DNA of 64,000 nucleotides, taken from a virus. The DNA lies in IMG/VR virus record IMGVR_UViG_3300044213_000060, positions 28,903 to 92,902 of that record; one strand, given 5' to 3'. Positions 16,370-19,078 of the stretch are shown here, piece by piece. The first letter of the stretch is position 1. Each line of letters starts with the position of its first letter. A program made the position numbers and the translations under genes. The notes beneath the pieces were generated by a model, which did no database searches, was not told where the DNA came from, and saw nothing but the letters and a program-made list of their open reading frames with translations.

Positions 16370-17201
16370 TCATCAAGCACAACAGGGATTTTTAACATTA
16401 GCCATTGGCGCAGATTATCTACGTATGGCTTATGCACAAGCATTGAGTGTCAAAACTGCAATGCCTGATGCACTATATGCAGTGGCAGTTGATGCAGAAA
16501 CAAAACTATTGATTACAGATAAACACATGACAGTATTTGATTATGTAGTTGATGTTCCTGAATTTAACAATCCAATGCAAGCAGAGCCTGAGTTATTTTG
16601 GGTCACTCCGTTTAAAGAAACAATTAAGTTAGAAGCAGACTTGTTAATACCGCGCAACATCAACCATTGGTGGACGGCATTAAGGCACAGAGAGTTAGTT
16701 ATTAGTACCAACTGCAGAGACTATCGCGGCAACATTGTTGTGGATACAACATATAGACGATTATGGGCAGATAATAATTTACCAAATGTCTATAATGGTC
16801 TAATGTATTTTAGATTTACTAGAGAAAATTTAGAATTCTTTATGTTAGCACGTGATATATTTGCTAACTGGGATGCCATTAAAGAAGAATTAAAAAATTG
16901 TAGAGATGATGCGCCCGAAACAGATCAAGTATATGCATTGGCTGCTAGCATACACGGTGTTGAAAGATCTACTATGCCCAGTTTAGATTTTTTCACAATG
17001 ACCCACATGAAACCACACATACAAGGATGGCCGTATGACACAGTTTGGCCTACTGCGGTTATTACCGAAGTTTACGATTCAGTTATAAGAATTAATAATG
17101 TAGAACAACTGTATCCGTTTCATTATCATGAGAAAGACTGGCTAACTGAAGATATAATAAATACATATGAATCAATTAGATCCCTTAGAAGAATTTCTTA
17201 A
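16362..17201 (+). CDS. GT-A fold glycosyltransferase-like protein
   Basis: TPFKETIKLEADLL (ExD variant), NVYNGLMYF, TDQVYALA, THMK; paralogous to the previous gene. Confidence 0.62.
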   Translation: MFNHQAQQGFLTLAIGADYLRMAYAQALSVKTAMPDALYAVAVDAETKLLITDKHMTVFDYVVDVPEFNNPMQAEPELFWVTPFKETIKLEADLLIPRNINHWWTALRHRELVISTNCRDYRGNIVVDTTYRRLWADNNLPNVYNGLMYFRFTRENLEFFMLARDIFANWDAIKEELKNCRDDAPETDQVYALAASIHGVERSTMPSLDFFTMTHMKPHIQGWPYDTVWPTAVITEVYDSVIRINNVEQLYPFHYHEKDWLTEDIINTYESIRSLRRIS

Positions 17202-17529
17202 AGCACTAGCATCATTGCCCGAACCAGTTGTGCCAGAACCAAAAGAGTATAGAATATACTACAATGAAACTGGTAGAATAACAATGTTGTCCATGACCAA
17301 TCACCCCGAAGGTGATTATATTGTTGTAGATTTAGAAACTTTTGAAAACTATACTAGATACGCCGGAGTCAAGGATAAAAAACTCATACCGGTTGCACAA
17401 AACAGTGGATATCAAGTACAATTGTCAAAAGGTTTATTGGGTTTTACAGTAGTAGCAGGACATGCTGGATTACTAATAGAAGACGAATCTTATCAAAATA
17501 CGGAGAACTATGGCTACACAAATCGTTGA
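17167..17529 (+). CDS. Hypothetical protein
   Basis: 120-aa ORF overlapping both neighbours. Confidence 0.6.
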
Positions 17530-17566
17530 TGTTGCAACAATTTTCTACGTTCGTTGGACGCTTTAA
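17510..17566 (+). pseudogene. Vestigial 5' end of the glycosyltransferase gene at 18173 (MATQIVDVA...)
   Basis: GGAG RBS at 17502, ATG 17510; IVDVA matches IIDVA at the start of 18173; stop after 18 codons. Confidence 0.6.
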
Positions 17567-18092
17567 CTCCGGCGGCAATTTTGTCTTTTGTCTCTTGAGA
17601 ATACACCCGCCGTTTATTGGATTCTGCTATTTCGGCTTTGGATTCTGGGGTATGTTGTGGACCAGCAACTTTGCCCTTCTTGTGAGAAGGTCTCCCTTTA
17701 AGTTTTTCGGACCGTTGTTTCTTTTCTTCCTCGGTCCATAGTCTTCTTTTCTTTTTATGTGTAAACGTTTTTCCTTGCATTTGCAATCCTTTAGCAAGGC
17801 GTTGACTTGTAGTCCACACCCTTCCGGATGTTCCGTCACCACCATCGGTTTGATTTCGGAGTATCCCAGTTCCCAAGTCTTTGCGTCCGTACCATTTTAT
17901 AAGTTGTCGCTCAATTGCAAGAGCACCAATTTCTGTTAAATTTTGTTCAATTATAATGATACGATTTAGTTCGCTTGGTATTCTGATATATTTGCGATTG
18001 TCCGAAAATGCTCGCTTACCTGAGTCTTTTCCTATATAATAAGGGGTGCCATCTGTTCTTAGATAGGCATAGACATAAAAGTGTAAATACAT
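17514..18092 (-). mobile_element. Free-standing GIY-YIG homing endonuclease with NUMOD3-like basic tail
   Basis: FYVYAY...PYYIGK..G.R, conserved E (AIERQLI) and N ([10 protein letters not shown]); C-terminal repeats [33 protein letters not shown]; antisense to the operon. Confidence 0.88.
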
Positions 18093-18163
18093 TGCTGATA
18101 GTTCCTTATAAACTGTTAGAGCAGGTGGATGCTTCCAACATCGCGATCTGCACTATTATTTAT
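18093..18163 (-). promoter_or_regulatory. Late promoter (ATAAATA 18163-18157) and structured leader of the endonuclease
   Basis: Minus strand: GCAGAT-CGC-GATG-TTGGAAG-CATC-C-ACCTGC stem-loop, then an AGTT-TATAAGG-AACT hairpin containing the AAGGA RBS. Confidence 0.55.
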
Positions 18164-18172
18164 TAAAAAAAA

Positions 18173-19078
18173 ATGAAAAATCCTGAAATAATCGATGTAG
18201 CTGATCTTGATACAATATATTTGACATATGATGAACCTCAAAAAGAAGAATTCTGGATTAAAATCCAAAATATGGTACCTTGGGCAAAGCGTGTTGATGG
18301 AGTTAAGGGCAGCGATGCTGCCCATAAGGCCGCAGCCGATGCCAGTGAAACTGATCGTTTTGTGCTTATTGACGGAGATAATTTGCCCGACGCTGATTTC
18401 TTTAACCTGCAGTTACGTTTGGATAGTACCAATGCTGATTGCGTGTTTCGTTGGCGGGCTCGCAATAGTATAAACGGCCTAATGTATGGCAACGGCGGAA
18501 TGAGTTGTTGGACCAAAGACTTTGTTTATAATATGAAAACACACGAAGCATCCGACGGTGCTGATGATACTGCAGTGGAGTTTTGTTTTGACCCCAAATA
18601 TTGGGCCATGCACGACTGCTACTCAACTACATACCCAGACGCAACCCCATTCCAAGCATGGCGTGCTGGATATCGTGAAGGTGTTAAGATGTGTTTAGAC
18701 CGTGGCACTAAACCTACTATTGCCGAATTTGAGCAAAGAGTAAACGGCCGGAACTACGACAACTTATGCATTTGGCAATCAGTTGGAGCAGACAACCCCA
18801 ATGGTCTGTGGGCTATATATGGTGCACGACTAGGTACTATTATGACCATGAACGAAGAAACCTGGAACTATAGAGATGTGCAAGACTTTGATAAACTAAA
18901 AGACCTTTGGCAAACATTCGGCAAACTTGATCCGGCTAAAGAATTAGAAAAACTAACCAAGTCTTTAACTAATAGACTAGGATTGCCGGTTACATTATTA
19001 AATGCCGAAGCAAGCCGGTTCTTCAAGCATCATTATCGTGCAGTATTTCGAAATCAAGGACCAATGGTACGTGAGTAA
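18173..19078 (+). CDS. GT-A fold glycosyltransferase-like protein
   Basis: AHKAAA...FVLIDGDN (DxD); homologous to the C-terminal domain of 47750..51964. Confidence 0.65.
   Translation: MKNPEIIDVADLDTIYLTYDEPQKEEFWIKIQNMVPWAKRVDGVKGSDAAHKAAADASETDRFVLIDGDNLPDADFFNLQLRLDSTNADCVFRWRARNSINGLMYGNGGMSCWTKDFVYNMKTHEASDGADDTAVEFCFDPKYWAMHDCYSTTYPDATPFQAWRAGYREGVKMCLDRGTKPTIAEFEQRVNGRNYDNLCIWQSVGADNPNGLWAIYGARLGTIMTMNEETWNYRDVQDFDKLKDLWQTFGKLDPAKELEKLTKSLTNRLGLPVTLLNAEASRFFKHHYRAVFRNQGPMVRE

Follow-up and report, generated by a model that had tools for sequence, protein, structure and literature searches.

Free-standing homing endonuclease genes of T4-like phages (the seg and mob genes) either occupy the space between genes or divide a gene into two halves that both function, as mobE does in nrdA and mobA in genes 39/60 (PMC2988022). 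In fungal mitochondria, endonuclease open reading frames (ORFs) in atp6 of Allomyces and in atp6, atp9, cox2 and nad3 of Glomus carry a foreign 3' gene end, and the native end persists as an unexpressed remnant that is identical to the sister species (PMC3630166). One-sided homing with illegitimate repair of the double-strand break was described for the td intron of phage T4 (Parker, Belisle and Belfort, 1999, as cited in PMC2988022). Here, a related arrangement is reported from a stretch of 64,000 nucleotides (nt) of viral DNA, hereafter called the window, which comprises positions 28903-92902 of the 92.9-kb IMG/VR record IMGVR_UViG_3300044213_000060 (estimated 26% complete). Probably, a cassette with a homing endonuclease gene of the GIY-YIG/NUMOD3 type homed into the overlap between a gene termed 'up' and the GT-A-like gene downstream of it, with homologous repair on the right side co-converting the start of the downstream gene and with an illegitimate join on the left. 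A remnant of nine codons, the stub, marks the native gene start. As related IMG/VR contigs reach 354 kb, the window is taken to be part of a jumbo phage of the ~350-kb class; its lineage consists of uncultured, mostly freshwater jumbo phages that are unrelated to T4.

The locus resembles the T4 seg and mob elements in several respects. A GIY-YIG or HNH nuclease is joined to a modular DNA-binding region, the gene is present or absent at one site between close relatives, flanking markers are replaced by those of the donor, the endonuclease at a given locus varies between phages and ORF ends overlap the neighboring genes; the antisense placement of the endonuclease is paralleled by segD (PMC2988022). 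Unlike these elements, the window insertion lies in the opening codons of one of two overlapping genes, it is accompanied by a second, apparently foreign gene start while the native start is left as a stub, and its host lies outside the T4 lineage. The closest analogue in logic would seem to be the fungal gene hybrids, in which the endonuclease likewise brings along part of the host gene as a substitute for the native end, and in which the remnant matches a close relative and the inserted end is diverged (PMC3630166). In contrast to the fungal cases, and as their mirror image, the window affects the 5' rather than the 3' gene end; its endonuclease is antisense and separate instead of co-oriented and fused in frame, the genome is that of a phage and not of an organelle, and the stub is kept by selection as the end of another gene. 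The element works like the fungal class but is no member of it. With the td case, to the extent that it is described in PMC2988022, the locus shares homology on one side of the break only and a junction without homology, the conserved gene body lying here on the right and the fast-evolving 'up' on the left. That case, as presented there, is an engineered laboratory system, whereas the window pathway is read from natural sequence. A limited literature search retrieved no paper describing this arrangement in phages, which is weak evidence of novelty.

A gene start divided by an endonuclease cassette

An earlier note on this DNA, made from the letters alone, had placed a ribosome-binding site and the peptide MATQIVDVA to the left of the insertion, and both are present: a GGAG Shine-Dalgarno sequence located within the coding sequence of 'up' is followed by the nine codons of the stub (Table 1). 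The stub frame then enters antisense endonuclease sequence, as had been described, and reaches a TAA at 17564-17566 after nine further codons, which leaves an 18-codon dead-end ORF. On the opposite strand, the endonuclease does take its last residues (LQHQRFV) and its stop codon from the antisense of the old start, at 17514-17537, and its ORF overlaps tail to tail by 16 nt with 'up', the stop codon of which occupies 17527-17529. The cassette begins 7 nt past this stop codon, in antisense orientation and directly after the stub. Its left edge was defined as the point where similarity to endonuclease-free relatives ends, and its right edge (18165) as the end of a leader element that is common to 15 other loci. 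The downstream ORF restarts 8 nt beyond the cassette, after the run of A residues recognized previously and without a Shine-Dalgarno sequence; an earlier start is excluded because a same-frame stop codon is located just upstream.

Position 18203 is the first base of codon 11 of the downstream gene, and joining 17536 to 18203 was found to stay in frame and to restore the predicted peptide with its family-typical N-terminus. This continuity would also be expected of a group I intron carrying an antisense endonuclease gene, from which splicing of 17537-18202 would restore the native protein and leave the second start as incidental. Such an intron is barely credible here, as no Rfam family was matched at E <= 1 in 17000-18700, the endonuclease lies on the opposite strand, the same leader also stands beside free-standing endonuclease genes at unrelated sites, and in the window, as in three further contigs (L180, L043 and L059), the cassette is followed by an N-terminus that is complete, conserved and equipped with its own ATG. 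The intron-less invasion that the earlier note had proposed is supported by these observations.

The ancestral layout is well represented among relatives. A search of IMG/VR with the 301-amino-acid downstream protein returned 80 loci with homologues, at 65 of which a homologue of 'up' is located upstream of the gene. At 56 loci 'up' abuts or overlaps the downstream start, leaving no space for an insert; at 15 no 'up' homologue was detected and at nine something is inserted between both genes. No endonuclease is found at the junction in 71 of the 80. The usual overlap between the 120-amino-acid 'up' and the gene of ~300 codons amounts to about 20 nt, and in the window, too, the last 20 nt of 'up' double as the native start region of the downstream gene. 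In overlapping alleles, the stop codon TGA of 'up' sits in a TTGAT that codes for Ile/Val-Asp of the downstream protein. It had been anticipated that endonuclease-free relatives would begin contiguously with M..IVDVADLD and overlap 'up', which holds for the 56 loci and for the start of the near-identical protein P0243.

Window DNA tracks that of its relatives, L001 and L023 among them, up to 17536, beyond which it is unrelated and represents the antisense of the endonuclease. The seven nucleotides past the 'up' stop codon (17530-17536), now unconstrained by any gene, are identical in L023, L034 and L075, and six of the seven are shared with L001. Of 5.8 billion proteins searched, the clade nearest to the downstream protein (85-88% identical) has an N-terminus of Met, an optional Ala or Pro and then TQIVDVADLDC; the exact nine residues of the stub, continued by DLDC, open at least nine database proteins of this clade (P0243, P0008, P0009, P0241 and others). 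Judged by these sequences, the match between the stub and the downstream start is more than chance. That the stub has persisted is put down to its first 20 nt, in which 'up' has its 3' end and its stop codon. Among phage records, blastn returned no match, and the sole tblastn match was Ralstonia phage RsoM2USA (38%).

Table 1. Positions of the features at the junction, numbered from the first nucleotide of the window
Feature	Position	Strand	Remarks
Gene 'up'	17167..17529	+	120 amino acids, no family; from the ORF list
GGAG Shine-Dalgarno sequence of the old start	17502..17505	+	within the coding sequence of 'up'; direct sequence reading
Native-start remnant (stub)	17510..17536	+	ATG at 17510; nine codons, MATQIVDVA
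Free-standing homing endonuclease gene	17514..18092	-	192 amino acids; GIY-YIG domain (residues ~1-80) and NUMOD3-type DNA-binding region
Inserted cassette	17537..18165		629 bp; body of the endonuclease ORF plus leader; absent from relatives
Structured leader	18093..18165	+	73 nt; abuts the endonuclease start codon
Replacement 5' end of the downstream gene	18166..18214	+	leader of A residues at 18166-18172 with codons 1-14 at 18173-18214; donor flank most likely
Downstream gene, GT-A-like	18173..19078	+	301 amino acids; invariant DGD motif
Leader loci	18084-18165 (window)	+	other loci: L180, L242-L247, L254, L261, L264, L266, L271, L286, L293, L319, L337, L345

Origin of the replacement start

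Two database proteins bear on the origin of the new start: P0243, a member of the 90% cluster of the downstream protein, and P0259, which was found by a search with residues 1-40 only. The N-terminus of P0243 consists of the nine residues of the stub followed, undivided, by DLDC. After residue 14, the window protein and P0243 are identical in 286 of 287 residues (99.7%), whereas the first 14 residues show six changed positions, namely five substitutions and one extra codon. P0259, by contrast, shares 71% of its residues overall but every one of window residues 3-15, among them a Thr at position 14 that is rare in the family (11 of the 207 sequences examined). The new N-terminal string NPEIIDVADLDT equals the N-terminus of the P0259 lineage. 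On this comparison, the downstream gene is a mosaic, P0259-like in residues 1-14 and P0243-like in residues 15-301. The differences from P0243 are packed into the first 14 residues, and even drift therefore cannot explain the head of the protein.

The head of apparently foreign origin directly adjoins the cassette, where a co-conversion tract is expected. Two hallmarks of intronless homing are observed: co-conversion of the flank is seen at the protein level, and close relatives differ in the presence of an endonuclease at one site, the undivided start of P0243 standing beside the 71 loci mentioned above. That an almost identical protein retains the undivided native start suggests that the insertion is recent. 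In the earlier note the duplicated start had been described as recoded at the DNA level. The two 15-nt copies, in the stub and in the new start, do differ (10 of 15 bases are shared), but recoding in place is less likely than a co-converted donor flank, which the match to P0259 favors.

In the proposed pathway, an endonuclease from a co-infecting, cassette-bearing phage would have cleaved the empty allele in the vicinity of codons 9-14. Repair of the right end would have proceeded by homologous recombination in the conserved gene body (70-88% identical), with the cassette and about 14 codons copied from the donor. The left end would have been joined illegitimately, because 'up' is too diverged for homology, and recipient DNA would have been kept up to the break; compared with L001, 'up' is 44% identical in amino acids and the downstream gene 87%. 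The stub would have been retained as the carrier of the end and stop codon of 'up', and as a by-product the endonuclease ORF would extend seven codons into the antisense of the stub before it meets a stop codon. The split and altered target would probably shield the allele from re-cutting, and immunity to its own nuclease by way of the altered target is plausible.

A local origin of the second start can also be envisaged. In this scenario, about 30 bp of recipient sequence were tandemly duplicated in place, and drift or selection (for starting translation without a ribosome site, or for escape from cutting) gave the right copy its present form, so that no foreign donor was involved. In agreement with this, the TTGAT that in overlapping alleles contains the 'up' stop codon is gone from the right copy, which no longer has to provide it, and the N-terminal seven residues vary across the downstream-gene family. 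Tandem duplication is nevertheless unlikely, as a single difference in 287 residues after residue 14, set against five substitutions and a one-codon insertion before it, does not correspond to even drift, and as a distant lineage known from the databases has the identical string, down to the rare Thr14. Reversed polarity is a still more remote alternative: the present start would then be native, and the stub and the end of 'up' would have arrived from a donor together with the cassette. Conservation of the left flank is poor, as the divergence of 'up' from L001 illustrates, and its ancestry is hard to trace, which leaves some room for such a history; the gene body, however, belongs to a clade whose members all start in the manner of the stub, and the closest of them, P0243, has a stub-type start in one piece.

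Several points weigh against homing with co-conversion as set out above. Protein sequences are the only source for the tract boundaries and for the view that the P0259 lineage carries the cassette while P0243 lacks it, and the residues that discriminate the patch are few, five at positions 3-7 plus Thr14. The left junction need not mark the cleavage site. The closest homologue of the endonuclease, P0122 (79% identical), has a tail that is not decodable as this junction, and, the event being recent, the intact downstream ORF alone is no proof that the gene still works. L001 is 78% identical at the DNA level, and a sliding identity scan against it was too noisy to place the tract boundary; a DNA pattern for the new N-terminus of the window had no match in viral contigs.

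Recurrence at the junction and the downstream protein

Endonuclease genes at the same junction were identified in further contigs. L180, a metagenome contig of 1.6 kb, carries a 78%-identical endonuclease and the same leader before a 70%-identical homologue of the downstream gene with yet another N-terminus, which points to the cassette as a mobile unit. In L059 (3062-3958, - strand), the junction holds a NUMOD3-bearing endonuclease with an HNH-type motif by sequence reading; the contig keeps a six-codon stub, MSTELI, with which L076 (86% identical), its nearest relative without an endonuclease, also begins, and the active start of L059 is diverged. L043 (3314-3991, - strand) and L070 carry an HNH and NUMOD3 endonuclease after a five-codon stub, MPLID, which is overlapped in antisense by the endonuclease stop codon. 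The left junctions of L043, L059 and the window follow codons 5, 6 and 9, respectively. Three or four independent alleles thus show one solution; the layout of native stub, antisense endonuclease and diverged new start is repeated with HNH endonucleases in L059 and L043. The usual Cys codon at residue 14 is missing in four of four distinct endonuclease-bearing alleles but in only 6 of 45 endonuclease-free ones (Fisher p = 0.001, ignoring phylogeny), a loss that fits a donor flank or an altered target alike and is the sole hint of immunity to the nuclease.

This recurrence bears on the possibility that the window is a chimera of two metagenome strains. The record is a metagenome assembly, and chimeric ends do occur, the last 230 nt of L180 being unrelated. 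Misassembly at the junction is nonetheless scarcely conceivable: all ORFs are intact and the junctions coherent, the same layout is found in four independent assemblies (L180, L043/L070 and L059), and a whole gene flanked by a stub on one side and a full start on the other is not what a chimera would produce. As for L180 itself, its endonuclease ORF matches through residue 79 only and then runs into unrelated sequence (1-230 of the reverse complement), which indicates a chimeric assembly end or a truncated gene.

The HNH-type endonucleases of L043 and L059 and the GIY-YIG endonuclease of the window have NUMOD3-type C-terminal regions that are 49-62% identical, the upper value being that of window residues 119-186 against the L043 protein (68 residues). 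Their alignment suggests an exchange of nuclease domains on a shared DNA-binding module at the junction, and the locus, with its two nuclease types joined to similar NUMOD3 regions, lends itself to the study of such exchanges.

Other insertions were observed between the two genes. At L025 (3352-4020, + strand), and likewise at L028, L030, L063 and L080, the junction holds a co-oriented ORF of 222 amino acids without a family, and at L053 (3148-4011, + strand) a co-oriented, 287-amino-acid DUF6492 protein. The inserted ORF of L025 ends with a ...TNN-type tail and the TTGAT stop that normally belongs to 'up', and 'up' itself ends differently; by its sequence, L025 would represent the opposite solution to the same overlap problem.

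The downstream protein had been called a glycosyltransferase. No Pfam or PHROG family was matched, and the assignment comes from a structure model (predicted local distance difference test, pLDDT, 81.5; predicted template modeling score, pTM, 0.81). All of the 50 best rows in VIA have the nucleotide-diphospho-sugar transferase fold of GT-A glycosyltransferases or nucleotidyltransferases (Z 6.5-8.2, 129-229 residues aligned), although Z < 8 can reflect a common arrangement; Foldseek agrees weakly (E 0.002-0.03). A DxD-type motif, D67-G68-D69, is placed after a beta strand and is invariant in 34 homologues. The name is a reasonable working label taken from the predicted fold rather than a statement of function. 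In the model, the core sheet has its first beta strand at residues 5-8, and for this reason the protein would need an N-terminal head.

The downstream gene has now lost its coupling to 'up' and has an A-rich leader and no ribosome-binding motif. Its transcripts must cross the antisense endonuclease gene or begin at the structured leader of the cassette. The older alleles of L043, L059 and L180 argue that the downstream gene can work after an insertion.

The endonuclease, its leader and the significance of the locus

The endonuclease was found to match phrog_15526 and phrog_314 ('homing endonuclease'). NUMOD3 (PF07460) was detected in 17 of 19 homologues (best E 1.6e-11) and GIY-YIG (PF01541), weakly, in nine of the 19 (best E 0.018), the window protein itself having no match to the latter at E <= 1; a profile search of PDB sequences gave only E 0.06 to a GIY-YIG protein. 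In the structure model (pLDDT 67.5), residues 1-80 resemble PD-T4-3 (Z 7.5, root-mean-square deviation 2.6, 73 residues aligned), the UvrC N-domain (Z 6.7, deviation 3.0, 71 aligned) and the I-TevI catalytic domain (Z 5.4, deviation 4.0, 76 aligned). None of the 48,161 chains compared scored better than these three, and unrelated rows reached 4.8 at most. In Foldseek, GIY-YIG proteins fill the ten best rows, though at E 0.17-0.5. The model predicts that residues 1-80 adopt the GIY-YIG catalytic fold, a three-stranded sheet with flanking helices. Residues Y6, Y8, Y18-Y19-I20-G21, R27, R33, E61 and N80 are invariant in the 19 homologues and kept in the window protein, which by alignment would include the motif residues of the family (Tyr of 'GIY', Tyr-Ile-Gly, Arg, Glu and Asn). 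The enzyme looks intact, being of full length and retaining every one of the invariant residues.

The C-terminus reflects the junction. Homologues stop 2-5 residues past a conserved RRK, to which the window protein adds the seven residues from the stub antisense. None of 80 endonuclease relatives in viral contigs adjoins the pair of 'up' and the downstream gene, and in a metagenome scan with the endonuclease alignment, L180 was the only close endonuclease relative among the matches listed. Separately, the tails of P0125, P0127, P0129 and P0137 (RQ followed by FVS, FCS or SDS) can be decoded in antisense as ATG plus real N-termini of the downstream-gene family (MTQI, MNKI, MNQI). To go by these tails, the four endonucleases may sit at the same junction in other phages, which is a lead only.

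Upstream of the endonuclease start codon lies a structured leader. Its first hairpin occupies 18095-18119, with a loop that is complementary to the ribosome site of the endonuclease, AAGGA at 18103-18107; the second hairpin (18121-18151) is followed by a U-rich tail (18154-18162), and a TAAATA box at 18084-18089 is located within codons 2-3 of the window endonuclease, and within codons 2-4 when the leader loci are taken together. The leader exists in 16 copies, which adjoin, nearly unchanged, the start codons of the endonuclease ORFs of the window and of at least 15 others. The endonucleases concerned belong to several GIY-YIG subfamilies and two HNH types and are located at unrelated sites on other phage contigs. 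Of the alignment cells, 99.7% are paired, and compensatory changes occur at four pairs, a result that none of 500 shuffles reached; one G-U is invariant. Pairing is found in 319 of 320 cells on the + strand, antisense to the endonuclease, as opposed to 274 of 320 on the endonuclease-sense strand. No Rfam family matched the leader. Because the folded strand is antisense to the ribosome site of the endonuclease, the leader could be a cis-antisense RNA; from its sequence, it may be this or a bidirectional control module.

A separate observation concerns L242 (2902-3008, - strand), where the leader is kept with a mere 8-codon stub instead of an endonuclease ORF; by its sequence, this looks like a site that lost the endonuclease gene yet kept the leader. 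Several other explanations of the leader were considered. Derivation from a tRNA was dropped, as ARAGORN found none, and the hairpin-2 region was not flagged as an intrinsic terminator by a consensus scan. A role as a copy of the homing site (operator) was likewise dropped, the shared 7-mer being short and the leader serving endonucleases at unrelated sites. A reading of the TAAATA boxes as T4-type late promoters is doubtful, given that TATAAATA occurs once in the window against about nine occurrences expected from shuffles. Over the whole window, this T4 late-promoter octamer seems to be avoided rather than used in this phage.

A more far-reaching and tentative possibility is that the cassette represents a portable kit for colonizing gene overlaps. 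The kit would combine the endonuclease, a short copy of the conserved 5' end of the target gene that restores the gene and alters the target, and the universal structured leader, which GIY-YIG and HNH endonuclease genes of many freshwater phages have in common and which could give rise to a cis-antisense RNA of ~70 nt that would restrain the nuclease much as a type I antitoxin does. Irrespective of this model, the shared leader, which Rfam does not contain, may be counted among candidate RNA regulators of homing endonucleases, and it is the more unusual by-product of the analysis.

Taken as a whole, the window case is a recent, recurrent and well-documented variant of known endonuclease homing. 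The window and P0243, one residue apart outside the 14-residue patch, constitute a natural near-isogenic pair in which cleavage, immunity and expression can be tested. Homing, on this account, would write very short foreign patches of about 45 nt into the 5' ends of genes of uncultured jumbo phages, and such patches can mislead start-site annotation and phylogenies. For the two genes at the junction, the arrangement suggests that a selfish endonuclease gene can settle in a gene overlap without destroying either partner, the stub preserving 'up' and the imported start preserving the downstream gene.

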